The notes under the pieces were generated by a model. That model was not told where the DNA came from and ran no database searches. It saw nothing but the letters and a program-made list of their open reading frames with translations. DNA of 50,260 bases, taken from the sequence record PQ159479; one strand, given 5' to 3'. This DNA is from Escherichia phage Henu4_2. This document shows, piece by piece, positions 3,654 through 28,378 of the stretch. Within the stretch, counting starts at the first letter, position 1; every line of letters begins with the position of its first letter. A program made the position numbers and the translations under genes.

Positions 3654-3687
3654 GTGCCTTGTCGAGACAAGCAAAGGAGAATGACAA

Positions 3688-5055: not shown

Positions 5056-5057
5056 TA

Positions 5058-5673: not shown

Positions 5674-5684
5674 GGAGAGTAAAC

Positions 5685-8322: not shown

Positions 8323-8347
8323 AACCCGCCTTGCGCGGGTTTTTTTG
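8323..8347 (+). terminator. rho-independent terminator closing the left early region
   Basis: ACCCGC-CTTG-GCGGGT followed by TTTTTTT. Confidence 0.7.
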
Positions 8348-8393
8348 TGCATACAATTTAGCTATAATCACGCATCAACAGGAGGATTTTATT

Positions 8394-8918
8394 ATGGCTA
8401 AAAAAACAGAAGCGCCAGCGGCGGAAAGTCTAAACTTTAAAAAGTTATGGAATAAGCGATATTCCGATCTGGTAGGTAGTGAGATTGATAAACGCGCAAC
8501 GCTAACGCCGGAACAGGTCATGAATCTGATTGTTCAGTATTTTGAATGGGCGGAGCTAAACGCTATTAAAGCAGGTGAAACGGCATCATTTCAGGGGCGA
8601 GTGTATCAGGACACGATTCACAAGCCGCGTATTTTTACATGGGAAGGATTAAAGCTTTTTTGCGGTTTTTCCGGCACAGCACTAGCAAAGTGGAAACTTA
8701 AACCAGGCTATGATGTTGTTATTGAGTTTGCAGAATCGGTGATCAAAGAACAAAAATACCAGTTAGCGGCAAACGGAATGATTAACAGCACCATGATCGC
8801 AAAAGAGCTTGGTATTGATAAAGGCGACACGTTCAATATTAGCGCTAACGCCAAAGAGCAAGACAATACAGAAGAAGCGATGAAAAACGCAGTCGCAAGC
8901 GTCCTAAGTAAGATTTAA
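8394..8918 (+). CDS. terminase small subunit (by position)
   Basis: 174-aa ORF immediately upstream of TerL; TATAAT at 8363-8368 and RBS GGAGGA. Confidence 0.5.
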   Translation: MAKKTEAPAAESLNFKKLWNKRYSDLVGSEIDKRATLTPEQVMNLIVQYFEWAELNAIKAGETASFQGRVYQDTIHKPRIFTWEGLKLFCGFSGTALAKWKLKPGYDVVIEFAESVIKEQKYQLAANGMINSTMIAKELGIDKGDTFNISANAKEQDNTEEAMKNAVASVLSKI

Positions 8919-8929
8919 AGGTGAATGCT

Positions 8930-10501
8930 ATGTTGATTTGGGAAGATTTAACAAAACTTGAAAAGCTGGCTATTAAGGAATTAAGTACACACGATTTTGA
9001 TACTTTCGTTAAAATATGGTTTCCGATCCAGCAGGGCGAAAAATGGATTCCTAACTGGCATCACCTTTATATTGCAAGGGCAATTGATGAAATTATTGAA
9101 GGTGTGCGCAAAGATACCATTTTTAACGTAACGCCAGGTTCAGGTAAAACCGAATTACTTTCGATCCACTTTCCGCCTTATTCATATCTAAAATTGAACA
9201 AGGTGCGAAATCTTAATATTTCGTTTGCTGATACGCTGGTTAAACGTAACAGCAAGCGTGTGCGCGATCTGGTTAACTCGCGAGAATGGCAAGAGCTTTA
9301 CCCCGCAAAAACTGGTACAAGCAAGGATGATGAATTTCAGATCCTTAATGACGCTGGCAAAGTTCGCCTGGAAATGATTAGTAAATCAATGGGCGGTCAG
9401 ATTACTGGTAGCCGTGGCGGTTACATCACGCCTGGTGTTTATTCCGGTTGCGTAACGCTTGACGATCCAGAAAAGCCAGATGATATGTTTTCGAAGGTGA
9501 AGCGTGAGCGCGGTCAAATGATCGCAAAGAACACCATTCGATCACGTCGCGCACATTCAGAAACGCCGATTATCGTTATTCAGCAGCGTCTACACGCGCA
9601 GGATATGACCTGGTTTCTGATGAATGGCGGAATGGGTATTGAATTTGATCAGATATCAATTCCGGCGATGGTTACAGAGGAATACGGGAAATCGCTTCCT
9701 GATTGGTTGCAACCGCACTTTGAAAAGGATGTGCTTTCGTCTGAATACATCGTTATTGACGGCGTGAAGTATTATTCTTTTTGGCCTAGCAAGGAAAGCA
9801 TTCATGACCTGAAAGCGCTACGCGATGCGGATTTGTACACGTTTCTTTCTCAGTATCAGCAAGAGCCAATTGCTCTTGGCGGTAACGCAATTAACGTTGG
9901 ATGGTTCCAGTATTATGGAACAGGAGAAAAATCAACGATGCCAAAACCGGATCGCTTTGATTATACGTTTATTACAGCAGATACCGCTCAGAAAGAAGGT
10001 GAGCTAAACGACTACAGCGTTTTGTGTTATTGGGGCATGTTCAAAGGCCGCATCTATTTTATTGACGGTGTGCGCGGCAAATGGGAAGCGCCAATGTTAG
10101 AAACGCAGTTTAAAGCGTTTGTTAAACAGTGCTGGAACCGTAACAAAGAATGCGGAAACTTGCGTAAAATTTACGTGGAAGATAAAGCGAGCGGCACAGG
10201 TTTGATCCAGAATTGCCGCAAAGCATTTCCGATAGAAATTACGCCAGTGCAACGCGATAAAGACAAAGTAACGCGATGCATGGACGCACAACCAGTGATC
10301 AAGAATGGTTATGTTGTATTGCCTGAATCGCATCACATGCTTGCTGAATTTCTGGCAGAGGCGGCGGCATTCACTTATGATGACAGCCATCCTCATGATG
10401 ATATTATGGATAACCTTTTTGACGCGGTTAATATTGAGCTTAACCTTGCTGATAATGCGGTTGATAGAATGAAGCGTTTAGCTGGATTAGCGAAGCGTTA
10501 A
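8930..10501 (+). CDS. terL: terminase large subunit
   Basis: N-terminal P-loop-like VTPGSGKTE; C-terminal RNaseH-like nuclease acidic motifs (ITADTAQKEGELNDYSV, HPHDDIMDNLFDAV); alternative GTG start at 8921. Confidence 0.85.
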   Translation: MLIWEDLTKLEKLAIKELSTHDFDTFVKIWFPIQQGEKWIPNWHHLYIARAIDEIIEGVRKDTIFNVTPGSGKTELLSIHFPPYSYLKLNKVRNLNISFADTLVKRNSKRVRDLVNSREWQELYPAKTGTSKDDEFQILNDAGKVRLEMISKSMGGQITGSRGGYITPGVYSGCVTLDDPEKPDDMFSKVKRERGQMIAKNTIRSRRAHSETPIIVIQQRLHAQDMTWFLMNGGMGIEFDQISIPAMVTEEYGKSLPDWLQPHFEKDVLSSEYIVIDGVKYYSFWPSKESIHDLKALRDADLYTFLSQYQQEPIALGGNAINVGWFQYYGTGEKSTMPKPDRFDYTFITADTAQKEGELNDYSVLCYWGMFKGRIYFIDGVRGKWEAPMLETQFKAFVKQCWNRNKECGNLRKIYVEDKASGTGLIQNCRKAFPIEITPVQRDKDKVTRCMDAQPVIKNGYVVLPESHHMLAEFLAEAAAFTYDDSHPHDDIMDNLFDAVNIELNLADNAVDRMKRLAGLAKR

Positions 10502-10515
10502 TGTGTAAAATCAAA

Positions 10516-10539
10516 GGCTGGAATATTCCGGCCTTTTTT
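10516..10539 (+). terminator. hairpin + T-run at the TerL/portal junction
   Basis: GGCTGGAATATTCCGGCC + TTTTTT, followed by ATTATGGGGGT. Confidence 0.4.
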
Positions 10540-10554
10540 ATTATGGGGGTATTT

Positions 10555-11850
10555 ATGAGCGACAAGGTAAAGGCCATTACTAAAGAAGATGGTTACAACG
10601 AAATTTTCGGATCTAAAGATGGAACGTTTAGGCCGAATGCTTTTTACATGCAAAGCGCGGCATTTAAAACGTTATCGCAATTTTATGAAGAAGATGGAAT
10701 GGCGCGGCGCATTGTAGATGTTATTCCAGAAGAAATGGTAACGCCTGGTTTTAAAGTTGACGGCGTGAAAAATGAAAAGTCTTTTAAATCGCGTTGGGAT
10801 GAATTGCGATTAAACGCTAAAATTATTGATGCGCTTTCATGGTCGCGTTTATTTGGCGGTTCTGCAATTCTTGCTGTTGTTGCTGATAACAGAATGCTGA
10901 AATCACCTGTAAAGCCTGGCGCACAACTTGAAGATATTCGCGTATATGATCGCTATCAGATCACCATTCAGGAACGTGAAACTAATGCGCGGAGTGTTCG
11001 TTACGGTGAGCCAAAACTTTATAAGATCTCACCTGGCGGAGATATACCGGAATTCTTTGTTCATTACTCGCGTATTTGCATCATTGATGGTGAGCGCGTA
11101 TCGAATGAAAAACGCCGTCAAAATGATGGTTGGGGTGCAAGCATTTTAAACAAGCGTTTGATTGAGGCGATTGTTGATTATAACTATTGCCAGGAATTAG
11201 CAACGCAATTGCTACGCCGAAAACAACAAGCAGTATGGAAAGCGCGTGATCTGGCTTTGATGTGCGACGATGAGGAAGGGCGCTATGCGGCGCGTTTGCG
11301 TTTGGCTCAGGTTGATGACGAAAGCGGAGTTGGTAAGGCAATTGGTATTGATGCCACCGATGAAGAATATGAGGTTCTCAATTCTGACGTTTCCGGCGTT
11401 CCAGAGTTCTTACAGGAAAAGATTGATCGAATTGTTGCGCTAACTGGCATTCATGAAATAATCCTCAAAAATAAGAACACTGGCGGCGTTTCAGCGAGTC
11501 AAAACACGGCGCTAGAGACTTTCTATAAGTTGATTGATCGCAAGCGCGGAGAGGATTACAAGCCAATTCTTGAATTCCTTTTGCCGTTCATGATCGCAGA
11601 AACGGAATGGTCTATTGAATTCGAACCGTTAAGCGTTCCGAGCGATAAGGACAAAGCTGAAATTATGGCTAAGAATGTTGAATCTGTTGTAAAATTGAAA
11701 GCTGAACAGGCGATTGATCTCAAAGAAACAAGAGACACTTTGCGATCCATTTGTCCAGATCTTAAAATCAGGGACAATGACAACATTGAATTGCCAGAGC
11801 CGGAAGATTTAGATCCAGAGCCAGGGCAAGAGGGGGGATTGAATAAATGA
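10555..11850 (+). CDS. portal protein
   Basis: about 430 aa between TerL and the Mu-F-like head protein; start chosen at ATG 10555 after GGGGG RBS (ORF is open from 10501). Confidence 0.7.
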   Translation: MSDKVKAITKEDGYNEIFGSKDGTFRPNAFYMQSAAFKTLSQFYEEDGMARRIVDVIPEEMVTPGFKVDGVKNEKSFKSRWDELRLNAKIIDALSWSRLFGGSAILAVVADNRMLKSPVKPGAQLEDIRVYDRYQITIQERETNARSVRYGEPKLYKISPGGDIPEFFVHYSRICIIDGERVSNEKRRQNDGWGASILNKRLIEAIVDYNYCQELATQLLRRKQQAVWKARDLALMCDDEEGRYAARLRLAQVDDESGVGKAIGIDATDEEYEVLNSDVSGVPEFLQEKIDRIVALTGIHEIILKNKNTGGVSASQNTALETFYKLIDRKRGEDYKPILEFLLPFMIAETEWSIEFEPLSVPSDKDKAEIMAKNVESVVKLKAEQAIDLKETRDTLRSICPDLKIRDNDNIELPEPEDLDPEPGQEGGLNK

Positions 11851-12518
11851 TGTTTCCCGATATGACAGAGAGCGACGTTGAAAAGGCGCTTAATGATCTG
11901 GCGGTTGATATCACTGAAAACAATGCTGATGTAGAGGCGGCAATTGCCGCCTTTATGTTGCTGGTTTACGGGTTCGCCGTTAGTGCATACAAATACCACA
12001 CTCGCCAATTTATCAGAATGGCAAAGCAAACAGGAGGAGCAAATAATAGATCCGTTATCCTTCTGATTGGTGGCGTTTACGGAAATATGAATGAACGTTG
12101 GTTCAATTCAAAATACATAACCTGGCGATCACTTATTGAGGCATCCGTAAGGAAATTTGCGTATAATGTGCTTGATGATTGGGAAGTGCAACAGCGTTTA
12201 AATGAGTTACGCGAGCAAGCAGAAACAAGAGCACAGATCCGAAAGCGTCTAAGAAAATATAAGGCGTGGGCTAAAAATAGGGCGTCTGGTTTTGTTGGTT
12301 CGTGGTATTCCGTGTTAATGTATCAACGCGTAGTTGATGCAGGAGTTACCCATTATATTTGGCGCACTCAGGAAGATAATCGTGTTAGACCTGAACACGC
12401 GAAATTGAACATGAAGCGGATCTCATTGGCAATAAAGCACATATTCCCAGGGCAGGAATATAATTGTCGCTGTTGGGCGCAACCGGATTGGGAAACAGAG
12501 CAAGAGGTATATTTATGA
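11847..12518 (+). CDS. head morphogenesis protein (Mu F / SPP1 gp7-like)
   Basis: motif YIWRTQEDNRVRPEHAKLN typical of the Mu F domain. Confidence 0.75.
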   Translation: MMFPDMTESDVEKALNDLAVDITENNADVEAAIAAFMLLVYGFAVSAYKYHTRQFIRMAKQTGGANNRSVILLIGGVYGNMNERWFNSKYITWRSLIEASVRKFAYNVLDDWEVQQRLNELREQAETRAQIRKRLRKYKAWAKNRASGFVGSWYSVLMYQRVVDAGVTHYIWRTQEDNRVRPEHAKLNMKRISLAIKHIFPGQEYNCRCWAQPDWETEQEVYL

Positions 12519-13624
12519 AGAAGGTGCAACGTTTTGATAGTGTCAGAGTAAAAGCGCATTTTGATGAACACGGTTTTTTAGTGGATCGGCCTATTGTGGC
12601 GCGAATTGGTTTGCAGATTTATCAAACGCCATACGGCGAGCGTAGAGAATTCAGGCCAGCAAGTGAAGTGTTTAAAGCTGATAGCCTGGCGACTTACGCA
12701 GGGAAACCAATCACAGTAGGTCACGTCACCGTAACGCCTGAAAACGCCGAAAAGGTTGTTGTTGGATCGTGTTCCGGTGCTGGCATTCCAAATGGTGTGG
12801 GTGTTGAAGCGCCGTTAAATATTTACGCAAAACGAGCAATCGAAAGCGCAAAGAAAAAGCAAACGGCTGAAATTAGCGTTGGTTATACGTCGATTGATAT
12901 TGATAAGCCTGGTTATGGATCTAATGAAACTGGTGAATACATCTTTGAAGAAGATCTAAAAGAAGATGAACAGCCGCCGGAAGGATGGGTAAAATTTGAT
13001 GCGCTGCAAACAAGCATTAGTGTTAACCATATTGCGTTAGTGTTTAAGGGTCGCGCTGGCATTGCAAAATTGAATCTTGATAGCGAGCAAGAATTCCCGT
13101 ATGATATCGACGTTAAATTAAATAAAGAGGACGAAGTTATGACCGTTAAAATTAAACTTGATGGTGCTGTTGAATTTGACGTACCAAAAGAAGTTGCTAC
13201 TTTTATCGAAACCGTGAAAGCAGACGCTACAGCGGCAAAAACTAAAGCCGATAGCCTGGAAGCAGAGCGCGATGCTCTACAGGCGAAAGTTGACGGCATT
13301 CCGGCGCAGATTGAAGAAGCCGTGAAAAAAGCAAAAGCTGACGCTGATGAACATGCCGCGCTGGTCGCTACCGCTTCCGAAGTTGGCGTAAAATGCGACG
13401 GCCTAACCGCCAAAGAAATTAAGATCGCATATGTAAAAGAGGTTATGGGTAATGACATTAGCGCAAAGGCTGATGCATATATTGATACCGCTTTTGATAT
13501 CGCTAAAGAATCTGATAAAATGGCGGCTCAACGTATCGCATTAAAAGGCGATGCAGCAAAAAACAAACAGGATGCAGCGGAAACAGTTCTTGATCCTTCC
13601 GCACGTCTTAATAAAGCTAAGTAA
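12515..13624 (+). CDS. scaffolding protein (candidate)
   Basis: position before capsid; C-terminal half Ala/Lys/Glu/Asp-rich, coiled-coil-like; ATGA overlap with upstream gene. Confidence 0.5.
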   Translation: MKKVQRFDSVRVKAHFDEHGFLVDRPIVARIGLQIYQTPYGERREFRPASEVFKADSLATYAGKPITVGHVTVTPENAEKVVVGSCSGAGIPNGVGVEAPLNIYAKRAIESAKKKQTAEISVGYTSIDIDKPGYGSNETGEYIFEEDLKEDEQPPEGWVKFDALQTSISVNHIALVFKGRAGIAKLNLDSEQEFPYDIDVKLNKEDEVMTVKIKLDGAVEFDVPKEVATFIETVKADATAAKTKADSLEAERDALQAKVDGIPAQIEEAVKKAKADADEHAALVATASEVGVKCDGLTAKEIKIAYVKEVMGNDISAKADAYIDTAFDIAKESDKMAAQRIALKGDAAKNKQDAAETVLDPSARLNKAK

Positions 13625-13636
13625 GGAGAAAATATT

Positions 13637-14116
13637 ATGGCTCAGATTTCAGCAAGTTATCATGTTGCAATGGCTCGCGCCTTGCCTGGTCAAGTTTCTG
13701 ACACTTCCGCGTATAACATCGACGGCGCTTGTGTTCTTGATGGTGATACCGGAACAACAATTTATGTTGGCGTTGGTGTTCAACATGGCGGAATTAGCGC
13801 AAGCGGTGAGAAATTAATTAAGGCTATGGCGGCGTCTGGTAATGCTTATGGTGTTGCTATTCGATCCAACTTCCAGACCACATCTAAAGATGGTCGAATG
13901 GTTTATGAGGCTGGTAGCGGAATTAACGTAATGACCAAAGGGCGCGTTTGGATGCTATCTGTAGAATCAGAAGCGCCAGCATTCAAAACACCTATCAAAC
14001 TTGACAATTCAGGGCAGGTTGATTTAACGTCTGGATTAATTGAAACTACTTGGATCGCAACTGGAGACTTTACGGAATTCCAAGGTCTAAAACTCGTTGA
14101 GGTTCAACTGGTATAA
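13637..14116 (+). CDS. structural protein, paralog A (head decoration/accessory candidate)
   Basis: shares YNIDG and KGRVWM...PAFKTPIKLDNSG motifs with the following ORF; RBS AAGGAGAA. Confidence 0.45.
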   Translation: MAQISASYHVAMARALPGQVSDTSAYNIDGACVLDGDTGTTIYVGVGVQHGGISASGEKLIKAMAASGNAYGVAIRSNFQTTSKDGRMVYEAGSGINVMTKGRVWMLSVESEAPAFKTPIKLDNSGQVDLTSGLIETTWIATGDFTEFQGLKLVEVQLV

Positions 14117-14122
14117 TAATAA

Positions 14123-14146
14123 GGCCGGATTATTCCGGCCTTTTAT
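14123..14146 (+). terminator. hairpin + T-run
   Basis: GGCCGGATTATTCCGGCC + TTTTAT. Confidence 0.5.
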
Positions 14147-14159
14147 ATATGGTGGTTTT

Positions 14160-14600
14160 ATGTCTGATTACGGTTCTATAATAGGTATAGTTGAAAATGG
14201 GTGCTTGGTAGATTCAAGCCTTTATAATATAGATGGCTCGCCAGTTATGGATGTTTCAGCCGTGATAGGTAAGGCCGTATGTGTTGATCACATATCTTGC
14301 GGTTACAAAATAATCAGCCACAATTTTAATGAAAACTCAAAGCATTACGGAATCGTTACGCGTGATTATATGGATTTTTGCAAAGAATATTACGACGCCG
14401 GAGATCCGGTTAACGTAATAACTCATGGTCGAATTTGGGTAATCACTCAGGACGAACAGGATATTCCATCGTATAAAGATCCTGTTTTTGTTAAAGACAA
14501 TGGCTCTATATCAACAAGTGGATTTCCTACCAGTTGGTTTTTTACTGGCGAATACGTAAGATATTCACACGGATATATTTTACTATCAGTTCAGTTGTAG
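14160..14600 (+). CDS. structural protein, paralog B
   Basis: YNIDGSPVMD and HGRIWVI...PSYKDPVFVKDNGS mirror paralog A. Confidence 0.45.
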   Translation: MSDYGSIIGIVENGCLVDSSLYNIDGSPVMDVSAVIGKAVCVDHISCGYKIISHNFNENSKHYGIVTRDYMDFCKEYYDAGDPVNVITHGRIWVITQDEQDIPSYKDPVFVKDNGSISTSGFPTSWFFTGEYVRYSHGYILLSVQL

Positions 14601-14649
14601 TGTTCTAACACAAAAAACACTTGAACGTTTAACAAAAAATGCTATATTA

Positions 14650-14674
14650 AAGCCGTTATTATGACGGCTTTTCT
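14650..14674 (+). terminator. hairpin + T-run immediately upstream of capsid RBS
   Basis: AAGCCGTTATTATGACGGCTT + TTCT. Confidence 0.45.
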
Positions 14675-14689
14675 ATGAGGGGAAATATT

Positions 14690-15664
14690 ATGTCTAAAGA
14701 AATTAAATATGATGAATTTGAAGCAAACGTGATCGCCAACCATATGCAGTTACGCGGCGCTAAAAACGACGCATCTGATATGGGTATTTGGACGGCTCAA
14801 GAGCTTCATAAAATTAAGGCTCAAGCCTATGAAAAAGAATATCCGGCAGGTTCCGCACTGCGTGTATTCCCTGTAACGTCCGAGCTTTCCGATACAGATA
14901 AAACCTTTGAATATCAGACTTTCGACAAAGTAGGGCACGCAAAAATCATCGCTGATTATACTGATGATCTGCCAACTGTTGACGCGCTGATGACTTCTGA
15001 ATTTGGTAAAGTGTTCCGCCTGGGTAATGCGTTCCTGATTTCCATTGACGAAATCAAAGCAGGTCAACGCACTGGCAAGAGCCTTTCCACTCGCAAGGCC
15101 AACGCCGCACAGAATGCGCATGATCAGCTTGTAAACCACTTGGTTTTCAAAGGCTCTAAACCGCATAAAATTATCAGCGTGTTTGATCATCCAAACCTGA
15201 CAACTATCAACTCCGCAGGTTGGAACAACGCCGCAGGTACTGGTAAAAAGCCGGAAACCGCACAGGATGAATTAGAGCAAGCGATTGAAAAAATCGAAAC
15301 GCTGACCAACGGGCAGCACCGCGCTAATATGATCCTGATTCCGCCGTCAATGCGTAAAGTTCTGATGGTTCGTATGCCGGAAACAACCATGAGCTATCTT
15401 GATTATTTCAAGCAGCAGAATGGCGGTATCACTATCGAATCCATTTCCGAGCTTGAAGATATCGACGGCGCAGGTACTAAAGCGGCGCTGGTTTACGAAA
15501 AAGATCCAATGAACATGAGCATTGAGATTCCAGAAGCGTTTAACATGCTGACCGCGCAACCTAAAGACCTGCATTTCAAAGTGCCTTGCACCTCTAAATG
15601 TACTGGCCTGACGATTTACCGTCCGTTAACGCTGGTTCTGATTAAAGGTCTTGTAGTAGGCTGA
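14690..15664 (+). CDS. major capsid protein
   Basis: 325 aa, position in head module, RBS GAGGGGAAA, followed by a strong terminator. Confidence 0.65.
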   Translation: MSKEIKYDEFEANVIANHMQLRGAKNDASDMGIWTAQELHKIKAQAYEKEYPAGSALRVFPVTSELSDTDKTFEYQTFDKVGHAKIIADYTDDLPTVDALMTSEFGKVFRLGNAFLISIDEIKAGQRTGKSLSTRKANAAQNAHDQLVNHLVFKGSKPHKIISVFDHPNLTTINSAGWNNAAGTGKKPETAQDELEQAIEKIETLTNGQHRANMILIPPSMRKVLMVRMPETTMSYLDYFKQQNGGITIESISELEDIDGAGTKAALVYEKDPMNMSIEIPEAFNMLTAQPKDLHFKVPCTSKCTGLTIYRPLTLVLIKGLVVG

Positions 15665-15680
15665 TAATTCAATTAATATA

Positions 15681-15708
15681 GGGAACCGTTAAAAGGTTCC
15701 CTTTTTTT
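15681..15708 (+). terminator. strong rho-independent terminator after the capsid gene
   Basis: GGGAACC-GTTAAAA-GGTTCCC + TTTTTTT. Confidence 0.75.
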
Positions 15709-15726
15709 ATATCTGGAGAAAAACAA

Positions 15727-15999
15727 ATGGCTAAAGAAAAAGAAATTACACTGGTTAACACTGGCGTTGCACTGATTATTATTGATCGCGTTGACGTTAT
15801 GCCAGGTAAGGAAATTACCGTTGCGGAAAGCGTGTTAGAGCGGCAGGGTACAAAATCACTGGTTGCACAAGGCAAGCTAACCGTAAAAGATAACATCGAG
15901 CTAAACGATAAGATCATTGAAGCGTTCAACGAAAAACGCAAGCCAAACCCAACCGAAGGCAAAAGCAAAGCACAGCTTGAGGACGGCGGCGAGTATTAA
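15727..15999 (+). CDS. hypothetical structural protein
   Basis: 90-aa ORF, RBS TGGAGAAAAA. Confidence 0.4.
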   Translation: MAKEKEITLVNTGVALIIIDRVDVMPGKEITVAESVLERQGTKSLVAQGKLTVKDNIELNDKIIEAFNEKRKPNPTEGKSKAQLEDGGEY

Positions 16000-16007
16000 T
16001 TAGAAAT

Positions 16008-16030
16008 GGCGCTCATGTAGCGCCTTTTTT
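16008..16030 (+). terminator. hairpin + T-run
   Basis: GGCGCT-CATGT-AGCGCC + TTTTTT then ATTATGGGGGT. Confidence 0.6.
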
Positions 16031-16045
16031 ATTATGGGGGTTATT

Positions 16046-16465: not shown

Positions 16466-16833
16466 ATTATGAACAAATCAGATCTATGGCATCGGCTGGA
16501 ATTAATTTTTTTAGCGATGGAACTGGTGAATTTGATTGCATTACTCAACCTGGAAGCGTTGAAATTGTTGGCGGTATTGAGGTTGAAAAACCTGAAATAA
16601 AGGTGAAGATTAAAGGTCTTGTGAGAGCACCACGGACGCGAGAAGTTGACGGAGAGACAATTAGAGTTACCGACAAGTTAGGCGTTTTTAATGCTGATGT
16701 AGAGCTTAAAAACGGATATCAGATTGATATCGACGGCGAGCGTTATGTTATGGTTGAAACAAGACCAATCAGACCAACAAGCATTACCGTTGCTTACCGT
16801 CCAATAATGCGGAGGGTTGCGGTTCATGGCTGA
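16462..16833 (+). CDS. head closure / tail completion protein (candidate)
   Basis: 123 aa, RBS GGAGGT, in head-tail joining block. Confidence 0.4.
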
Positions 16834-17266
16834 TTATTCGATCCGAGAATTTCATGGCAATGTTGACAAATGGATCGAGCAAGTAGAAAGCGGATTGAAT
16901 GACGTGATTCAGATTTTTGGTGAAAAGGTTCACGGCGCATTAGTTGATATTGCGCCAGTGGACACAGGACGATTCAAAGCCAATATGCAGATCACAGCAA
17001 ACAAGCCGCCTCTTTACGCGCTCAATCAATATGATCCTGATGGTGATAAAACAAAGGCGGAAGGTCGCAGGACGCTTTATGCTTTATTGCATGGCGGCGG
17101 CGCTATTAAATCAATATACTTCTCCAATATGCTGATTTACGCTAATGCTCTTGAATATGGTCATTCAAAGCAAGCGCCAGCGGGGGTATTTGGTATCGTT
17201 GCGATCCGGTTGCGCTCTTACATGGCGGAAGCGATAAGGGAGGCGAGAAAGAAAAATGCACTATGA
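16826..17266 (+). CDS. tail completion protein (candidate)
   Basis: 146 aa, RBS GGAGGG. Confidence 0.4.
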   Translation: MADYSIREFHGNVDKWIEQVESGLNDVIQIFGEKVHGALVDIAPVDTGRFKANMQITANKPPLYALNQYDPDGDKTKAEGRRTLYALLHGGGAIKSIYFSNMLIYANALEYGHSKQAPAGVFGIVAIRLRSYMAEAIREARKKNAL

Positions 17267-17648
17267 ATTATCTGTTGCGGCAAGAATGGCGCTGGCTCAA
17301 GAATACGAAAGCGAATATATTATCGCTTATGAAAACGTTGAATTTACGCCACCAAAAGGCGGCGGCATTTGGCTTAAATATGACTACAAAGAAGCAGATA
17401 CAATAATTCATGATCTGAAAAGGAAATGCATTAGCTATATTGGAATGGTTCAGATCGGAATTGAATTCCCGCCAGGTTCAGGAATTGATAAGGCTCGCAA
17501 GCTGGCAAAAAATATTGCTGATTTCTTTGAAGATGGTAAAATGCTTTCGAATGGCTATATTTCAGAAGGTGCAAAAGTGCATCAAGTTCAGAAATCAGAA
17601 TCAGGCTGGTTTTATCCAGTACGTTTTTATGTTCGTTATGATGGTTAA
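17256..17648 (+). CDS. tail terminator / tail completion protein (candidate)
   Basis: 130 aa, immediately upstream of putative major tail protein. Confidence 0.4.
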   Translation: MHYELSVAARMALAQEYESEYIIAYENVEFTPPKGGGIWLKYDYKEADTIIHDLKRKCISYIGMVQIGIEFPPGSGIDKARKLAKNIADFFEDGKMLSNGYISEGAKVHQVQKSESGWFYPVRFYVRYDG

Positions 17649-17662
17649 TAAAGGGGGCTATT

Positions 17663-18322
17663 ATGCACTTACCTAACGGATCACAGATTTTTATTGAAAA
17701 CACGCGCGGCTCAGAAATCAAAGCAACAGCAATCAGCAACGCAACAGATCCGGTGTTTACCGCGTCTGATACTGGCGGATTGAAAAAAGGTGATTATGTG
17801 ATTGTCACTGTATCAACGTGGGGTAAACTTCTTGATCGTGTACTGCGAGTTAAAGAGGTTAGCGATAACACAAGTTTCACGCTTGAAGGTATCGACACCA
17901 CTGATGAAAACGTTTTTCCGTCCGGCGCTACTGGTAGCGTTATGAAAATTGAATCATGGACAGAGATCCCATGCGTACAGGACTTGGGGCAGGACGGCGG
18001 CGAGCAGCAGTATTACAATTACCAGTGCTTGAGCGATGACCAAGAGCAGCAGTTACCAACCTATAAAAGCGCGGTGTCACTGACTTACACCTTTGCGCAT
18101 GAGTACGATAATCCGATTTATCCGCTCTTGCGTAAGGCTGACGAATCCGGCGACGTTAAAGCATTGCGCATGTATGTACCAAAAGCAAAAGAAATGCGCC
18201 TTTGGGCTGGTGTGCTTTCTTTCAACGAGATCCCACAAACGGCGGTAAACGAAATGGAAACCGTTTCTTTGTCGGTATCCCTGAAAGGTCGCTTTACTTT
18301 CTTGCCTTCTACTCAGGCTTAA
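17663..18322 (+). CDS. major tail protein (by position)
   Basis: 219 aa, RBS AAAGGGGG, followed by terminator and the G/GT chaperone genes. Confidence 0.55.
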   Translation: MHLPNGSQIFIENTRGSEIKATAISNATDPVFTASDTGGLKKGDYVIVTVSTWGKLLDRVLRVKEVSDNTSFTLEGIDTTDENVFPSGATGSVMKIESWTEIPCVQDLGQDGGEQQYYNYQCLSDDQEQQLPTYKSAVSLTYTFAHEYDNPIYPLLRKADESGDVKALRMYVPKAKEMRLWAGVLSFNEIPQTAVNEMETVSLSVSLKGRFTFLPSTQA

Positions 18323-18326
18323 TTTA

Positions 18327-18351
18327 AAGGGGCGCATTGCGTCCCTTTTTT
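18327..18351 (+). terminator. hairpin + T-run
   Basis: AAAGGGGCGC-ATT-GCGTCCCTTT + TTT. Confidence 0.55.
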
Positions 18352-18393
18352 ATTTGATGTAATATCACCTCAATATTTAACCACTCAGGAGAA

Positions 18394-18714
18394 ATGACAA
18401 TGGCTAAAATTAAATTGACTCTTGCCCCGCTTCCAGATTTCAAACTTCCAGTTAAATTTGTATTGCCGGATGGTAACGAGCAGAAAATTGTGTTTACCGT
18501 TAAGCATAAAAAGGCCAGCGAGATTCAAGAACTTTACCAGAAAGAAGGTATTAAAGATCCTGAATTTATCATGAATGTTGCCGTTGGTTGGGATCTGGAA
18601 GAAGAATTCAACGAAGAAAACGCGCAACTGTTAGTTGATTATTACCCTGGCGCGGCGCTGGCTCTTATGGGATCTTATTTAAGTGCGCTGGCAGGGCAAC
18701 GCGTAAAAAACTAA
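18394..18714 (+). CDS. tail assembly chaperone G
   Basis: 106 aa directly upstream of tape measure; ends in slippery A_AAA_AAC. Confidence 0.6.
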   Translation: MTMAKIKLTLAPLPDFKLPVKFVLPDGNEQKIVFTVKHKKASEIQELYQKEGIKDPEFIMNVAVGWDLEEEFNEENAQLLVDYYPGAALALMGSYLSALAGQRVKN

Positions 18715-19031
18715 AACGGGCGGTTTATCTGTATTATCAGAAACCGCCGACAGATGCAGAATTGCAAGCCGTAGGATTAACACGCGCAGACTATGAAGGA
18801 GAAGATCCGCCAGAGGTCATATTTGATGAAAGTATGATGCAATCATGGGATATATTTTGCGCGATGGGTACACAGTGGCGTAGTGCTGGCGCTGGTGCTT
18901 ACGGTTTTGATTATAATGTTTTGCCTATGTTATTCAGAATCTATAAAATAGACGATGAAGAAATGGCCTTAAATGACTTGCGCATCATGGAACAAAAAGC
19001 ACTGGAAATGATGCAAGCAAATAACAAATAA
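18394..19031 (+). CDS. tail assembly chaperone GT, -1 frameshift product
   Basis: heptamer A-AAA-AAC at 18705-18711; the -1 frame is open from 18708 to 19031. Confidence 0.5.
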
Positions 19032-19053
19032 AGCGCCTACGGGCGCTTTTTTT
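19031..19053 (+). terminator. hairpin + T-run upstream of tape measure RBS
   Basis: AAGCGCC-TAC-GGGCGCTT + TTTTT. Confidence 0.5.
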
Positions 19054-19068
19054 ATGAGGGTAAAATAT

Positions 19069-21978
19069 ATGGCTGAACAATTTGCAGGTTTAACACTTGG
19101 CGTGAACGTCGAGCAGTTAAACAAAGCTGTTAAGTCGTTACAGGACTTTAAAAAAGCCAACGACGAAGCAAAGAAAGGCGTTGAGAGCTTTGTTAACGAG
19201 GAAGAAGTTGCAAAGCAAAAGGCTAAACAGTTAGCTGATGAATTGGCGAAACAGAGCCGTGAATTTAAACGCATTCAGGACACTGTTGATCCGACAGCGG
19301 CGAAAATGCGCAAGCTATCTCAGGCCGCAAGTGATCTTGATAAGCTATGGCAAAAGGGCATTGTTCCCGATGAAACGTTTTTCCAGTTGGGGAGTATGCT
19401 GGAAACTCAGATCAGTAAGCTGGAGCGTAATAAAAAGGCGTTAACGGAAGAAGGCCGCGCAGCACTTGAGGAATCAAAAGCCAAAGAGAAAGCAGCATTA
19501 GCCGGAAAAACTTTCCTTGCGGATCTGGAATCGCAAGCCGCCGCGCTTGGAAAAACAAAAGCCGAATTGCTGGAAATGAAAGCGGCGCAACTTGGCGTAA
19601 GTGCTCAGGCCGCGCCATTCATTGCACAGCTTAAAGCGCAAGAAAAACAGATGAAGTTAACCGGAATTAGCGCGGGGCAATATAACCAGGCCATGCGAAT
19701 GCTTCCGGCTCAGATCACTGACGTTGTAACGTCGCTGGCTTCCGGTATGCCTGTTTGGTTGGTTGCAATCCAGCAGGGTGGACAGATTAAGGATTCTTTC
19801 GGCGGCGTTGGCAATACGTTTAAAGTGCTGTTGTCGTTTCTGAATCCGGTAAACGTTGGCCTTGCCGCATTAGCCGTTTCAATGGGTGCTCTTGTTAAGG
19901 CTGGTTATGATGCGTATAAGTCGCAACGTGACTTGCAAGAGGCGTTGGTGCTGACTGGTGGCTATGCTGGCACAAGCGGAGCACAGTTCGATAAGCTGGC
20001 GCAGGACATTAATAACAGCACTGATGCGACGATAGGAAACATCCGATCCATCGCAACAGAGCTTGCAAAATCAGGCAAATTCACGATTGATCAGATTAAA
20101 TCGATCACAAAGACTACCGCTCAGTGGTCAACGGTAACGGGTGAATCAAGCGACAAGATAACCGATTACTTTAATAAGATTGCTGGCGATCCGGTTAAAG
20201 GTCTTGCAGAGCTAAACGAGCAATTCAATTTTTTAAGCGAAGGGCAGTTAACTTATATTGCAGACCTGGAAAAAACAAAAGGCAAAACGGAAGCAGTAAC
20301 GGCGGCGACAAAGTTATTTGCTGATGTTATGGATCAGAGATTAGCTAAATTGGCAGACTCCGCAACGCCATTAGAAAAGATGTGGACGAACATTAAAAAA
20401 TGGGCGTCAGATGCATGGGGTTGGGTTGGGGATCACACGCTTGCGGCGCTTAACCTGATTATTGACGTTGTAGCCGGAACCGTTGAGCAAGTTCGCTATT
20501 TGCTTAATCAGGGTGATATTCTCATTGGTGAATTTATTGTATCGGCAACCAAAACGATGCAAAAAATCCCAGGGCTTGATAATGTTGGCGATTCTGTTAT
20601 TTCGCAGCAACAGAAGATTATCAATAACGCTAAGGAGAACAACAAGGAGCTATTAAAATCAATTGCAGAACGTAACGAGCGAGTCAAAAAAGGCGAGCAT
20701 GGTTACATTGACATGATGAAAAATCGTGCGGCGGTTGAACAGCAATATGCGACAAAAACAAAAGAGAATATCAGGAAGGAAGCCGAGGAATTAGCCAAAC
20801 GCGATAAAAAGCAAAAGGCTGAAAAAGTTAAGGTATCGGCTGGCGATAAGCTGGAAGAACAATATCAGCGTGATATCCTGGCGTTAGAAACTCAATTAAG
20901 AGTTTTGAAAGAGCACAAGACGATCACAGATACCATAAGCCAGCAACGTAAATCTTTATGGGCTGAACAAGCTAAAATTCAGATTTTGCAAGAAGCCTCA
21001 ACAAAACGGCAACTTACTGATGAAGAAAAAAGCATTTTAGCCAACAAAGATAAGATCCTAGCGATGGCTGAACAAAAAGCTATTTTAGGAGATCAGATTG
21101 TTGCACAAACGCGCCTTAATCAGTTGCAAGATAGCTCAATCAAGTTTATCCAGCAGCAGAAAGCAGCAACAGAAGCACTAGCCAAAACCAGAGGGTTAAG
21201 TGAACGTGAAGCAGCAAGAGCGGCGGAACGTGCAAAGGTTGAGGCTGATTATCTTGCCAAAGGAGGTAAGGAAGGAGATCCGCAACTCACCGCAATGATG
21301 GATGCATTAGACAATCGCTATAAAGAGGAAGATGCTAAACGTGCTGATTGGTTGGCTGGCTCTAAAAATGCCTTTGCGGAGTACGGCGAGGAAGCAATGA
21401 ACATGTATGATAATATCGGCAACATTGCGAGCCAGGCGCTAAACGGCCTATCGCAACAAATGGCTGATTTTTTGACTACTGGACAAGCAAACTTCAAAGA
21501 CTTTGCAAAATCGATCATTAGCCTTATTGTTCAGATGATCACAAAGATGGTTATCTTCAATAGCATTTCCGGCATGATGGGCGGCTCAACCTGGACGCTT
21601 GGAAGCCTTTTAAGCGGTGCTGGTTTTGCTGGCGGCGGTTATACTGGCGACGGTGGCAAATATGATCCGGCTGGCGTTGTTCATAAGGGTGAGTTTGTTT
21701 TCACAAAAGAGGCAACGCAAAGAATCGGAGCTAAAAACCTGTATCGCATGATGCGAGGTTATGCAAACGGCGGTCAAGTAGGAAGCGTGACAACTGGCGG
21801 CGCTGGCATCAATCGCGGTGCATCGCAATTTGCATTTGGTGATATCAACGTTAACATTGACAACGGTCAAGATCCAAAAGGGATGGAAACTGGTATCAAG
21901 ATGATTTTCACTGAAATGATTCAACGGTCATGCTCGCAAGGTGGCGAGGTTTATAATTTTGTTCATGGGAGGGCTTAA
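19069..21978 (+). CDS. tail tape measure protein
   Basis: about 970 aa, long coiled-coil regions, Gly-rich C-terminal region; position before lambda M/L/K/I/J homologs. Confidence 0.85.
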   Translation: MAEQFAGLTLGVNVEQLNKAVKSLQDFKKANDEAKKGVESFVNEEEVAKQKAKQLADELAKQSREFKRIQDTVDPTAAKMRKLSQAASDLDKLWQKGIVPDETFFQLGSMLETQISKLERNKKALTEEGRAALEESKAKEKAALAGKTFLADLESQAAALGKTKAELLEMKAAQLGVSAQAAPFIAQLKAQEKQMKLTGISAGQYNQAMRMLPAQITDVVTSLASGMPVWLVAIQQGGQIKDSFGGVGNTFKVLLSFLNPVNVGLAALAVSMGALVKAGYDAYKSQRDLQEALVLTGGYAGTSGAQFDKLAQDINNSTDATIGNIRSIATELAKSGKFTIDQIKSITKTTAQWSTVTGESSDKITDYFNKIAGDPVKGLAELNEQFNFLSEGQLTYIADLEKTKGKTEAVTAATKLFADVMDQRLAKLADSATPLEKMWTNIKKWASDAWGWVGDHTLAALNLIIDVVAGTVEQVRYLLNQGDILIGEFIVSATKTMQKIPGLDNVGDSVISQQQKIINNAKENNKELLKSIAERNERVKKGEHGYIDMMKNRAAVEQQYATKTKENIRKEAEELAKRDKKQKAEKVKVSAGDKLEEQYQRDILALETQLRVLKEHKTITDTISQQRKSLWAEQAKIQILQEASTKRQLTDEEKSILANKDKILAMAEQKAILGDQIVAQTRLNQLQDSSIKFIQQQKAATEALAKTRGLSEREAARAAERAKVEADYLAKGGKEGDPQLTAMMDALDNRYKEEDAKRADWLAGSKNAFAEYGEEAMNMYDNIGNIASQALNGLSQQMADFLTTGQANFKDFAKSIISLIVQMITKMVIFNSISGMMGGSTWTLGSLLSGAGFAGGGYTGDGGKYDPAGVVHKGEFVFTKEATQRIGAKNLYRMMRGYANGGQVGSVTTGGAGINRGASQFAFGDINVNIDNGQDPKGMETGIKMIFTEMIQRSCSQGGEVYNFVHGRA

Positions 21979-22325
21979 TGTTAGATGAATTTACCTGGTG
22001 TACGCAGATTCAGAGCGGCGGCGGTGTAATGACAACTACCAATAACGACAGGGAAGTTGTTTTTGGTAACGGTTATCGCCAAAAGGCATCTTCTGGATTT
22101 AACACGGAGCGGAGGGAGTTTTCTATTGTTTACGCTGGCACTGATTATAAAAAAGTGAAAGCGTTCATGACGGATCACAGATTAAAGCCTTTCTTGTGGA
22201 GGATGCCTGATGGTGATTTAGGGTTGTTTACGGTTAAAGCCGGAACGGTAGGGCTAACGCCAATAAGCCCAACCGTTCAGGAAGTCAAAGCAACTTTCAC
22301 GGAAGAATTTACATCCATGCGATAA
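21978..22325 (+). CDS. minor tail protein M (lambda gpM-like)
   Basis: F.W...VVFGNGYRQKA...FLWRMP matches the lambda M pattern. Confidence 0.85.
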   Translation: MLDEFTWCTQIQSGGGVMTTTNNDREVVFGNGYRQKASSGFNTERREFSIVYAGTDYKKVKAFMTDHRLKPFLWRMPDGDLGLFTVKAGTVGLTPISPTVQEVKATFTEEFTSMR

Positions 22326-22329
22326 ATCA

Positions 22330-22353
22330 AAGCCGCCATTGTGCGGCTTTTTT
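22330..22353 (+). terminator. hairpin + T-run
   Basis: AAGCCGCC-ATTGT-GCGGCTT + TTTT, followed by TATAAT at 22362. Confidence 0.6.
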
Positions 22354-22392
22354 ATTGTGTCTATAATGGTGCTTTATTGGAGGGCATAGAAT

Positions 22393-23151
22393 ATGGCTGA
22401 AAAACAGATCAAAAAGACTTTTGAAAATTGTCTGCAATCGCTTTTCCCTGGTGAAATAATTACGCTTGTTGAGGTTGACGGCACAAAATTTGGTGCGCAG
22501 GTTTACCGCTTTCATGCTGAAAATATCTCGTACACGCCAGAGGAATTAATGCAAGCGCGTGAAACTGGAATATTGCCGCCGAAAGATATTAAATTCCGTG
22601 GCGAGGTTTACGGGGCGCGGCCTTTTGGGATTACTGGCATTGGCTTTACAAGTAACGGAAAGGCAGAGAAACCACAATTAGCGCTTTCAAATTTAGATAG
22701 CCGCGTATCTGCATTAATCAGATCATATAATGGCATGATGCAAGCCAAAGTAACAATTTGGGTTACATCGGCTGATTTAATTGATGAAGAAGGAAACGTG
22801 GAGGACGGCGCATATAGAAAGCTGGTTTATTATATTGAGCGTCCGAATTTTGTTAATCAGACAGTTGCACGTTTTGAATTAACATCACCTTATGATATGG
22901 ATGGAATTATGATCCCGCCACGACTCACGCAAAGCGTTTGTTATTGGGCGCAAAGGGGATGGTATAGAAGCGGGAAAGGTTGCGGATATAACGGATCGGC
23001 AATGTTCGATAAAGACAATAATCCGGTAACAGATCCTAGCAAGGATTATTGCGCCGGAACGGTTACAGCCTGTAAATTGCGCTTTGGCGCTCAAAATGAA
23101 TTAGATTTCGGCGGTTGCGCGGTTGCATCACTATTGAGGAAAAACCAATGA
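22393..23151 (+). CDS. minor tail protein L (lambda gpL-like)
   Basis: C-terminal Cys cluster CYWAQRGWYRSGKGCGYNG...CAG..TACKLRFG...FGGC like lambda L. Confidence 0.9.
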   Translation: MAEKQIKKTFENCLQSLFPGEIITLVEVDGTKFGAQVYRFHAENISYTPEELMQARETGILPPKDIKFRGEVYGARPFGITGIGFTSNGKAEKPQLALSNLDSRVSALIRSYNGMMQAKVTIWVTSADLIDEEGNVEDGAYRKLVYYIERPNFVNQTVARFELTSPYDMDGIMIPPRLTQSVCYWAQRGWYRSGKGCGYNGSAMFDKDNNPVTDPSKDYCAGTVTACKLRFGAQNELDFGGCAVASLLRKNQ

Positions 23152-23870
23152 TTAACGCAAAAATTAAACTTGAAATTATGCGCCATGCCAATGACGTTTA
23201 TCCTAATGAATGTTGCGGCCTGGTAACTCAAAAATCACGCGTACAGAAATATCACCGGATCGACAACGTAAGCAAGGAGCCGGAAAAACATTTTGAAATG
23301 GACGCGGAACAATATGCAGAAGTTGAGGACGGCGGCGCGGATATCATAGCGATAGTTCACAGCCACACAGGGGAAGGGGCAACCACAATTCCTAGCGCAC
23401 ACGATTTGTGCATGTGTGATGAAACTGGTGTTTCTTGGGTTATCGTTTCTATACCAGAGGGAGACATGAGAATCATAGAGCCACAATCACGGCCTTTGAT
23501 TGGTCGCCCCTGGTCGCTTGGCGCTTATGATTGTTGGGGTCTTATTATGGCCTGGCATAAAGAGCAAGGCGTGATCCTGAATGATTTCCGCAAGCCGTAT
23601 GAATGGTGGAAGCCGGAACATGGTGAAAACCTTTATCAAGATAATTACTTGAAAGAAGGTTTTATAGAAACAGGCGAACCGCCAAAGCCAGGTGACATGA
23701 TCATAATGCAGTTGCAATCGCCAGTATGGAACCACGCCGGAATTTATTTAGGCAACAATCAACTATTGCATCATGCATTCGGCAAGTTGTCGCGGGTTGA
23801 TTTATATTCTGGATGGTATCAGGAACACACAACAATGATTTGCAGACATAAGGATCTGAAAAATGAATAA
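23148..23870 (+). CDS. tail assembly protein K (lambda gpK-like; JAB/MPN + NlpC/P60)
   Basis: JAMM-like HSHTGEGATTIPSAHD; NlpC/P60 Cys in GAYDCWGLI. Confidence 0.9.
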   Translation: MINAKIKLEIMRHANDVYPNECCGLVTQKSRVQKYHRIDNVSKEPEKHFEMDAEQYAEVEDGGADIIAIVHSHTGEGATTIPSAHDLCMCDETGVSWVIVSIPEGDMRIIEPQSRPLIGRPWSLGAYDCWGLIMAWHKEQGVILNDFRKPYEWWKPEHGENLYQDNYLKEGFIETGEPPKPGDMIIMQLQSPVWNHAGIYLGNNQLLHHAFGKLSRVDLYSGWYQEHTTMICRHKDLKNE

Positions 23871-24462
23871 GGTTATCAACGTAAAATTATCAGGCTCATT
23901 AGGTCGCCGCTTTGGTGTTTTCCATAAATACGCCGTTGAGAGTTGGCCTGAATGCGTAAGGGCATTATCAAGCCAAGTTGAAGGATTCAAAGAATTTATG
24001 CAAAGTGAAATCGGATCAAAGATGAAATTTGCAATTTTCGTTGATGGTAAAAATGTTGGCCTGAATAATGATAGCGCATGGCGTTGCGCTCGCGAGGTTA
24101 GAATTGTTCCCGTTCCAACCGGTTCAAAATCTGGAGGTTTATTTCAGGTTGTATTAGGCGCTGTAATTATGGTTGCTGCATTCTATACTGGCGGCGCTTC
24201 ACTTGCTGCAATGGGGGCTTTTTCTTCATCGGCTTTTATGATGGGCGGTGCTATGGTTCTTGGCGGAGTAATGCAGATGATTAGCCCACAACAGGGAGGC
24301 ATGAAAATGGAGAGTCAAAGCGCTGAAAATAAACCATCATATGCGTTTGGTGGTGCTGTTAATACTACGGCGGCAGGTTATCCGGTATGTTTGCCATATG
24401 GTTATAGAACGGTTGGTGGCGCTGTATTCAGTGCTGGCTCATACGCAGAAGATAAACTTTAA
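23863..24462 (+). CDS. tail assembly protein I (lambda gpI-like)
   Basis: GSKSGGLFQVVLGA ... VLGGVMQM pattern shared with lambda I. Confidence 0.85.
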   Translation: MNKVINVKLSGSLGRRFGVFHKYAVESWPECVRALSSQVEGFKEFMQSEIGSKMKFAIFVDGKNVGLNNDSAWRCAREVRIVPVPTGSKSGGLFQVVLGAVIMVAAFYTGGASLAAMGAFSSSAFMMGGAMVLGGVMQMISPQQGGMKMESQSAENKPSYAFGGAVNTTAAGYPVCLPYGYRTVGGAVFSAGSYAEDKL

Positions 24463-24470
24463 TTATATAA

Positions 24471-24495
24471 ACCCGCCGTTGCGCGGGTTTTTTGT
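24471..24495 (+). terminator. hairpin + T-run (near-duplicate of 8323-8347)
   Basis: AACCCGCC-GTTG-CGCGGGTT + TTTT; TACAAT follows at 24502. Confidence 0.6.
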
Positions 24496-24543
24496 TACAT
24501 GTACAATGGCAGCACGTTTAAATAGCACAAAAGGTTAAAAGCT

Positions 24544-28320: not shown

Positions 28321-28334
28321 AAGGAGGTAAATCA

Positions 28335-28378
28335 ATGCCCTGGCTTAACGGTCTGGGCATTTTGTTTTCTTTTGTTCC
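28335..28378 (+). terminator. putative terminator closing the late operon
   Basis: ATGCCC...GGGCAT stem followed by TTTTGTTTTCTTTT. Confidence 0.45.

Follow-up and report, generated by a model that had tools for sequence, protein, structure and literature searches.

The late genes of Escherichia phage Henu4_2 (sequence record PQ159479; the window, here, is this whole stretch of 50,260 nucleotides) are punctuated by compact, GC-rich hairpins followed by runs of T, which resemble intrinsic, Rho-independent terminators. Between positions 8000 and 25000, the window is 99% identical, over the full length, to the Salmonella phages GJL01 and YSP2; its identity to Escherichia phage TLS is 96%. All three belong to the genus Tlsvirus (Drexlerviridae, Tempevirinae), and the window is that of a TLS-like phage. 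According to the annotated relatives, the late block, encoded entirely on the + strand, starts with terS, terL, and the genes for the portal, head morphogenesis, protease, decoration, Ig-like decoration, and major capsid (MCP) proteins, followed by a small open reading frame (ORF). It continues with the connector/neck genes, the major tail protein gene (MTP), the genes of the chaperones G and T, the tape-measure protein gene (TMP), and the genes M, L, K, I, and J.

The late block contains 11 of these hairpins on the + strand (Table 1), ten of them with a good-to-moderate T-run. They were located by a simple consensus scan together with folding scans. An earlier note on this DNA had counted at least ten, and all those that it named are present where it placed them; the eleventh, at 28334-28361, follows the tail-fibre gene. 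Every late-gene gap of at least 37 nt holds a hairpin, and the remaining junctions overlap or span 11-14 nt. A first permissive scan was too noisy and was superseded by strict criteria: a stem of at least 6 bp, a folding free energy (dG) of -9 or lower, and at least four T in the next 6 nt. With these criteria, 14 sites are found on the coding strand of the late block, against 1.9 +/- 1.6 (maximum 5) in 30 dinucleotide-preserving shuffles of the block, which represents an approximately sevenfold enrichment. Intergenic DNA makes up about 3-4% of the late block (computed from the list of gaps) and contains 11 of the 14 strict sites; the three located in coding DNA (9411, 11934, and 13453) have poor tails.

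All 11 hairpins have stems of 6-11 bp and a dG of -9 to -16 kcal/mol, as is typical of the stem and loop of an intrinsic terminator. The U-tract consists of T5-T7 at nine sites, being interrupted at 14121 and weak at 14650. The terminator score, a d'Aubenton-Carafa-type d-score, is positive for all hairpins but the one at 14650, and mostly lies between +20 and +50. The string TTTTTTATTATGGGGGT, reported by the earlier note as identical at 10534 and 16025, occurs in exactly these two copies, with a chance expectation of 0. The near-duplicate pair that it had placed at 8323 and 24471 also exists, and is formed by the hairpins at 8323 (AACCCGCCTTGCGCGGGTT) and 24469-24490 (AAACCCGCCGTTGCGCGGGTTT). 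The hairpin pattern in the late block is therefore real and statistically solid. Even though it goes far beyond chance, it does not extend to each late gene being preceded by a hairpin, as had been proposed, since only 10 of about 22 late genes have one upstream. Nor are these hairpins best described as elements preceding genes. They start -2 to 16 nt from the upstream stop codon in the window, with medians of -2 to 5 nt in the wide sample described below, and between T and TMP the stop codon sits in the stem itself. The hairpins thus track the upstream stop, and they are 3' elements of the preceding gene.

Table 1. Terminator-like hairpins, promoter-like sites and the gene J repeat copy of the late block.
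Feature	Position	Strand	Remarks
Terminator hairpin AACCCGCCTTGCGCGGGTT and T-run	8323..8348 (hairpin 8323-8341)	+	16 nt past the last upstream small ORF; d-score +24; T28 of TLS; start of the late block
-10 element TATAAT, putative terS promoter	8363..8368	+	Followed by a CATCAAC leader, AGGAGG, and ATG at 8394
Class A terminator after terL	10513..10549 (hairpin 10513-10536)	+	T-run, Shine-Dalgarno (SD) GGGGG 10545-10549, portal ATG 10555; without a -10-like hexamer
Class A hairpin after decoration-protein gene	14121..14155 (hairpin 14121-14142)	+	4 nt past the stop; interrupted tail TTTTATATAT running into SD GGTGG; ATG 14160
Promoter-like site before MCP gene	14621..14648	+	TTGAAC, 16-nt spacer, TATATT, TG before the -10; overlaps a reversed copy of the 21-nt repeat
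Hairpin right after the capsid-gene -10	14650..14670	+	Weak T tail TTCTATGA; d-score -7; poor terminator; ATG 14690
Class A terminator after MCP gene	15680..15720 (hairpin 15680-15702)	+	T7 run, SD GGAG, ATG 15727; d-score +31
Class A terminator after small ORF 15727-15999	16003..16040 (core 16008-16024)	+	T6 run, SD GGGGG, ATG 16046
Class B cassette after MTP gene	18326..18365 (hairpin 18326-18348)	+	Loop TTGCGT 18337-18342 at the -35 position; 17-nt spacer including the T-run; -10 TAATAT 18360-18365
Class A terminator after tape-measure chaperone gene	19029..19060 (hairpin 19030-19049)	+	Stop TAA 19029-19031 in the stem; T7 run; SD GAGGG; TMP ATG 19069
Class B cassette after minor tail gene M	22329..22367 (hairpin 22329-22350)	+	Loop TTGTGC 22339-22344; 17-nt spacer; -10 TATAAT 22362-22367; L ATG 22393
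Class B cassette after tail assembly gene I	24469..24507 (hairpin 24469-24490)	+	Loop TTGCGC 24479-24484; 17-nt spacer; -10 TACAAT 24502-24507
21-nt direct repeat copy ATAGCACAAAAGGTTAAAA	24522..24540	+	Overlaps the ribosome-binding region of tail-fibre gene J (ATG 24544); DR8 of TLS
Terminator after tail-fibre gene J	28334..28369 (hairpin 28334-28361)	+	Closes the late block; T50 of TLS

The late-block terminators are already known from the annotation of T1 and TLS, and the observation re-describes published annotation. The RefSeq record of T1 (NC_005833) carries features named 'rho-independent transcriptional termination site' at the homologous junctions: before terS, between terL and portal, after the decoration gene, the MCP gene, the small ORF and MTP, before TMP, at M/L and I/J, and after J. 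Table S1 of the 2024 re-annotation of TLS contains the same eleven terminators (T28, T30, T34, T35, T36A, T36B, T42, T44, T46, T49, and T50; PMC11447400), whose sequences are essentially identical to the hairpins of the window. The junctions thus correspond one for one, with the Ig/MCP hairpin also having its counterpart in TLS, and the elements themselves do not differ. All 21 TLS terminators are intergenic, and only three sigma-70-like promoters were reported for that phage, none of them in the late block (PMC11447400). The same paper recounts that the T1 late region had been described as organized in 'transcriptons', flanked by terminators and containing RpoD promoters, its authors being unable to say whether transcriptons exist (PMC11447400). 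More generally, predicted terminators outnumber promoters in T1-like genome papers, for instance 18-21 versus 5-10 (PMC4070988; PMC11447400). This imbalance recurs there unexplained, and no transcript-level data for any T1-like phage were found in the literature searched. The comparison presented here turns the puzzle into specific hypotheses. What it adds is a description of the junctions in two classes, together with sequence evidence that supports fused terminator-promoter cassettes and addresses the uncertainty stated by the TLS authors.

Conservation and level of selection

The window was compared with TLS, herni (Hanrivervirus), T1 and phi2457T (Tunavirus), Phc (Eclunavirus), KLPPOU149 (Webervirus), and JeanPiccard (Braunvirinae). 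Among these, T1 belongs to the seven classical T phages. As outgroup, a myovirus was used, PSKM, in which only the head module is shared. A wide sample of about 160 viral contigs was additionally retrieved by means of the tape-measure N-terminus and of the tail protein L.

The positions of the hairpins are kept across seven genera and these roughly 160 contigs, while their stems differ. A hairpin with a T-run is found at the same junctions in Tlsvirus, Hanrivervirus, Tunavirus, Eclunavirus, Webervirus, and Braunvirinae, that is, in nearly all lineages. The terminator following the MCP gene is present in all 9 genomes, outgroup PSKM included, with stems that vary by lineage: GGGAACC/GGTTCCC, GGGGAATCC/GGATTCCC, GGGGCTAAC/GTTAGTCCC, GCGCC/GGCGC, and GCCCTC/GAGGGC. 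Among the contigs, hairpin and T-run were detected at T/TMP in 78 of 80, at MTP/G in 76 of 78, at M/L in 76 of 79, and at I/J in 70 of 74. Despite the turnover in stem sequence, the T-run stands directly 3' of the stem in about 95% of the sampled contigs at these four junctions.

In a structure-anchored count, every stem position, indexed from the loop, swaps between pair types (GC, CG, AT, and GT). Each 5' arm also pairs with its own 3' arm far better than with permuted partners, a count that is partly circular, the hairpins having been chosen by folding. Because of this circularity in the pair-swap count, the detection rates in the contigs are the stronger evidence. RNAalifold, applied to a MAFFT alignment of 45 distinct MTP/G junctions, was uninformative, since the alignment anchored itself on the loop TTG, the T-run, and the -10 hexamer and left the stems out of register. 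The T/TMP junction is weak for covariation, as a single stem family (GCGCC/GGCGC) dominates it. A strand-neutral search of the stems of 58 distinct hairpins returned 19 G·T and 0 A·C among the internal non-Watson-Crick positions. Pairing is thus preserved at the level of the + sense RNA, and not in the DNA or the opposite strand.

Two side observations concern individual stems. Phc (about 2335-2370) and KLPPOU149 (about 2590-2630) keep a strong hairpin between terL and portal (GAGGGGCGAAAGCCCCTC and TGTGGGCCTGACGGCCCACA, respectively) without a T-run, which suggests that the hairpin alone has some value in these phages. In addition, the hairpin core CCCGCCTTGCGCGGG is found before terS in the window (8323-8341), and at both M/L and I/J in T1 (22789-22811 and 24970-24988). 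Either the cassettes were copied between junctions, or they converged under the constraint of the loop TTG.

Two classes of junction

The distance from the hairpin to the next ATG is bimodal, being either 16-25 nt or 38-84 nt, and the class of each junction is conserved. The short distance defines class A, which comprises five junctions: terL/portal, decoration/Ig-like decoration, MCP/small ORF, small ORF/connector, and T/TMP. The long distance defines class B, with four junctions: before terS, MTP/G, M/L, and I/J.

At the class A junctions, the T-run leads straight into the Shine-Dalgarno sequence (GGAG, GGGGG, GAGGG, or GGTGG). At most of them, no hexamer with A2 and T6 lies between hairpin and start codon, and the exceptions are a few 2-4/6 matches that overlap the Shine-Dalgarno. 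As no promoter follows these five sites, the genes downstream need read-through. These would be the genes from portal to decoration, that of the Ig-like decoration protein, those from connector to major tail, and the tape measure. Both copies of TTTTTTATTATGGGGGT, which belong to this class, hold an in-frame ATG (10543 and 16034) within the SD-like GGGGG, 12 nt before the likely true start (10555 and 16046); the annotation of GJL01 uses the upstream ATG and that of TLS the downstream one.

At the class B junctions, a TATAAT-like hexamer (5-6/6) is located 9-14 nt past the GC core in every lineage, or 19-23 nt past it at the terS junction. At the latter, the hexamer is TATAAT, TAAAAT, or TATACT in eight genomes, and a canonical TGn precedes it in T1, Phc, and the Webervirus. 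At I/J, all 46 distinct sequences match the -10 consensus at 5-6/6, with a perfect TATAAT in 31. At M/L, 46 of 54 distinct sequences reach 5-6/6, and the Braunvirinae show the class A form there. At MTP/G, the match is at least 4/6 in 56 of 62 distinct sequences, 46 of which have TG directly before the hexamer. Thus, in nearly all lineages and in the majority of the roughly 160 contigs, a hexamer with the A2 and T6 of a sigma-70 -10 element, and close to TATAAT, stands at a fixed distance from the hairpin.

Counting 16-18 nt upstream from the -10 places the corresponding -35 position in the hairpin loop. At MTP/G, 48 of 62 distinct sequences have TTG there, as do 28 of 54 at M/L and 34 of 46 at I/J. 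When the sequences are aligned, the TTG of the loop shows at least 90% conservation and keeps its register with the -10, whereas the arms of the stem vary in both sequence and length. These features support a compact, roughly 45-nt cassette: the loop would act as a weak -35 element, the 3' arm together with the U-tract would constitute a spacer of 16-17 nt, and a -10 hexamer of the form TAnAAT would follow.

A further promoter-like element precedes the major capsid gene. Its equivalents in T1 and Phc (TTGACG..TGCTATTAT) are closer to the consensus, and JeanPiccard has TTGCGT..TGTATAAT at this place. Unlike the class B cassettes, the capsid-gene element has a good -35. The hairpin at 14650 starts two bases past the -10, and the transcript start would fall inside its 5' arm or just before it. 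This hairpin may form a structure near the 5' end of the capsid mRNA, or weakly attenuate transcription coming from upstream. The earlier suggestion that the hairpins are 5' stabilisers is plausible at this site only, just downstream of the capsid promoter; all other hairpins keep to the upstream stop and so resemble 3' elements.

Re-initiation at each hairpin, which the same note considered as one way for late transcription to proceed, is thus borne out in part. The conserved -10 hexamers speak for it before terS and at MTP/G, M/L, and I/J, and so does the capsid-gene promoter. At the five class A junctions, where the T-run abuts the Shine-Dalgarno with no -10-like hexamer, it could not take place. 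Likewise, a transcripton would require a promoter in each terminator-bounded module, and promoter elements are predicted for five modules, with none at five junctions. On these predictions, the transcripton model of T1 holds in part only. The TLS paper, for its part, has no late promoters, compared with the conserved ones described here at four or five junctions.

Transcription through the late block

With moderate confidence, we favour the reading that these hairpins are ordinary Rho-independent terminators placed after groups of late cistrons, with promoters fused to four of them and the promoter-less sites being leaky. Termination itself, its efficiency, and the effect of the ribosome are what we infer in this proposal. 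The terminators would divide the late block into about ten modules. Class B cassettes would stop incoming transcription, restart it, and insulate the downstream module, and the major capsid gene would be served by a strong promoter of its own and followed by a strong terminator. The promoter-less terminators would be incomplete in vivo, the ribosome terminating at the nearby stop codon preventing the hairpin from folding. Such leaky terminators would act as attenuators and as 3' stabilising hairpins that set relative mRNA levels, resulting in nested, overlapping transcripts as in phiX174.

The effect of a nearby stop codon was described for the terminator tR2 by Li et al. (NAR 2016), where a shift of the stop codon's position from 28 bp upstream to 5 bp lowered termination in E. 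coli from about 90% to less than 10% (PMC4824070). More than 27 nt was required for full efficiency, and uncoupling translation abolished the effect (PMC4824070). All the late hairpins lie within this zone of less than 27 nt in which tR2 is repressed. The geometry of tR2 therefore matches that of the window (hairpins -2 to 16 nt after the stops), even though tR2 represents one terminator, studied on plasmids (PMC4824070).

In phiX174, no more than 20-70% of transcription is blocked by the terminators that follow structural genes, and nested transcripts result (bioRxiv 10.1101/2020.03.05.979765). This phage has three constitutive promoters and four partial terminators (TJ, TF, TG, and TH), with a blocking of 20-40% at three of them and of 70% at one (bioRxiv 10.1101/2020.03.05.979765). 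Like the window, phiX174 relies on the host RNA polymerase and has intrinsic terminators directly after structural genes that are read through, its nested transcripts setting ratios. However, its terminators are weak by sequence, whereas those of the window look strong and canonical. In T7, the terminator T-phi lies directly behind the major capsid gene 10, and the genes downstream depend in part on read-through, as would those of the window; unlike the window, T7 relies on a phage-encoded RNA polymerase and has a single main late terminator instead of ten.

Several points weigh against the proposed leakiness and the fused promoters. By sequence, the class A sites look strong: their stems are GC-rich, they have A-tracts and runs of T6-T7, and their d-scores resemble those of unit-end terminators. 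Their leakiness is assumed rather than predicted. One or two promoter-less terminators precede the genes of the decoration protein and of the major tail protein, both high-copy proteins, which is hard to square with simple attenuation unless read-through is high. Proximity to a stop codon was rejected as a special mark of read-through, since the unit-end terminators of the same genome are also found 6-24 nt from stops; being not specific to read-through sites, it may just reflect a compact genome. As for the cassettes, the -35 matches the consensus at 3/6 only (the TTG), and the TG usually adjoins the -10 instead of occupying the canonical TGn position.

A different explanation, which we regard as unlikely, is that the terminators are efficient and work as a timing gate, an unrecognised phage factor, either protein or RNA, making the host RNA polymerase resistant to them late in infection. 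It would account for the five strong-looking promoter-less terminators that precede high-copy genes, such as MTP behind 15680 and 16008, and for the excess of terminators over promoters in T1-like papers (PMC4070988; PMC11447400). A gate at 8323 would also make sense, given that transcription of the early + strand genes at 1-8.3 kb runs in the direction of the late block, and about 40 small ORFs without known function could encode such a factor. However, the processive antitermination that the earlier note had offered as an alternative to re-initiation found no positive evidence. No Q, N, or other antiterminator family was detected among 40 non-structural ORFs with PHROGs or among ten with Pfam, most of these being of 'unknown function'. 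The RefSeq annotation of YSP2, 99% identical to the window, likewise contains no antiterminator and a single 'transcriptional regulator', and an Rfam gathering scan of the whole window, put RNA included, gave no hit. Moreover, the conserved internal promoters after four terminators would be unnecessary for a processively resistant polymerase, and a single, dominant late promoter that has a recognisable loading site is lacking.

The same differences set the window apart from the Q/N-dependent late operon of lambda, which it resembles in having a long, unidirectional siphovirus structural block transcribed by the host polymerase across terminators. In the window, neither a Q or N homologue, or other known antiterminator, nor a put-like RNA was found, and the single late promoter of lambda is replaced by several conserved internal ones, with at least five conserved promoter-like elements inside the block.

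It is rather improbable that the hairpins are mainly elements of RNA stability or processing, either protecting 3' ends or, at the capsid gene, standing at the 5' end, with little termination and one or few long primary transcripts. Selection on these structures does act at the RNA level, the terL/portal hairpin persists without a T-run in Phc and the Webervirus, the tail at 14121 is interrupted (TTTTATATAT), and the hairpin at 14650 has a weak tail and would lie at the 5' end of the predicted capsid transcript. However, a T-run kept in about 95% of the contigs at four junctions bears the mark of termination and not just of a stabiliser. Sites for RNase III of the T7 type were rejected as candidates, as the stems measure 6-11 bp and about 20 bp or more of double-stranded RNA would be required.

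Finally, that the palindromes are DNA-level elements (for protein binding, recombination, or replication) or a product of compositional chance is extremely improbable: several are near-perfect and flanked by A and T runs, and weaker hairpins are found on the opposite strand too, but the strand asymmetry of 19 G·T to 0 A·C effectively refutes a role in DNA, the stems differ by lineage while structure and T-run persist, and the enrichment over shuffles is confined to intergenic gaps.

Alongside the fused cassettes, there is a possible, if doubtful, case for T1-like phages having an unrecognised route for the host RNA polymerase through the strong promoter-less terminators, either by a new antitermination factor or by an obligatory ribosome-coupled read-through where stop codon and hairpin overlap. 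Should read-through depend on a factor, this phage family, which is large and in medical use, would hold an antitermination system of a new kind. Should it be passive, these compact elements (about 45 nt) would lend themselves to insulating genes when phages are engineered.

The 21-nt repeat and other observations

A 21-nt repeat, aaATAGCACnnnTTGnTAAAA, has 21 matches in the window against about 3 expected, and is found in the control regions of early genes at 1192-6197 (+), 29837-39603 (+), and 44641-49600 (-). There, the repeat is followed, in a fixed order, by about 20 nt containing an inverted repeat, an extended -10 (TGnTAnnnT or CATAAT), a conserved leader (CATCGAAAC or CATCAACC), and the Shine-Dalgarno sequence. 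The inverted repeat is present every time, although its stem differs in sequence at each copy, and the extended -10 is located inside it or just after it. As a late promoter element, this repeat was rejected, since it marks early-gene promoters and only two copies fall in the late block. T1 and herni share the copy that lies at the ribosome-binding site of gene J, right before the ATG, and in T1 another copy overlaps the -10 and leader of the terS promoter. At both of these places, the repeat resembles an operator or an element acting in RNA, and not an upstream activating site. The only predicted transcriptional regulator of the window, encoded at 35153-35758 (-), is a protein of 202 amino acids (phrog_2856) with a weak Cro/YdaS-like helix-turn-helix motif. 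Its gene is flanked by repeat copies at 35166 (-) and 35769 (+), and the protein is a candidate for binding the 21-nt repeat.

Other observations relate to single genomes or records. The record of 'Streptococcus phage MBBL140' (OR786094.1) is 96.5% identical over 17 kb, and about 19 records of 'Campylobacter phage' also match; these are likely T1-like laboratory contaminants or phages with mislabelled hosts. The tape-measure frame of TLS is broken soon after its conserved start (12549-12628), and its annotated start lies about 75 nt downstream of that of the window, an interruption that may be a sequencing error or a real frameshift. One of the strict sites in coding DNA, at 11934-11953, is a perfect palindromic hairpin (GAGGCGGCAATTGCCGCCTT, dG -14.6) with a poor T tail, located in the head-morphogenesis gene about 85 nt from its start. 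In JeanPiccard, homing-endonuclease genes are inserted at the terS/terL (576-1052) and TMP/M (13303-13779) junctions.

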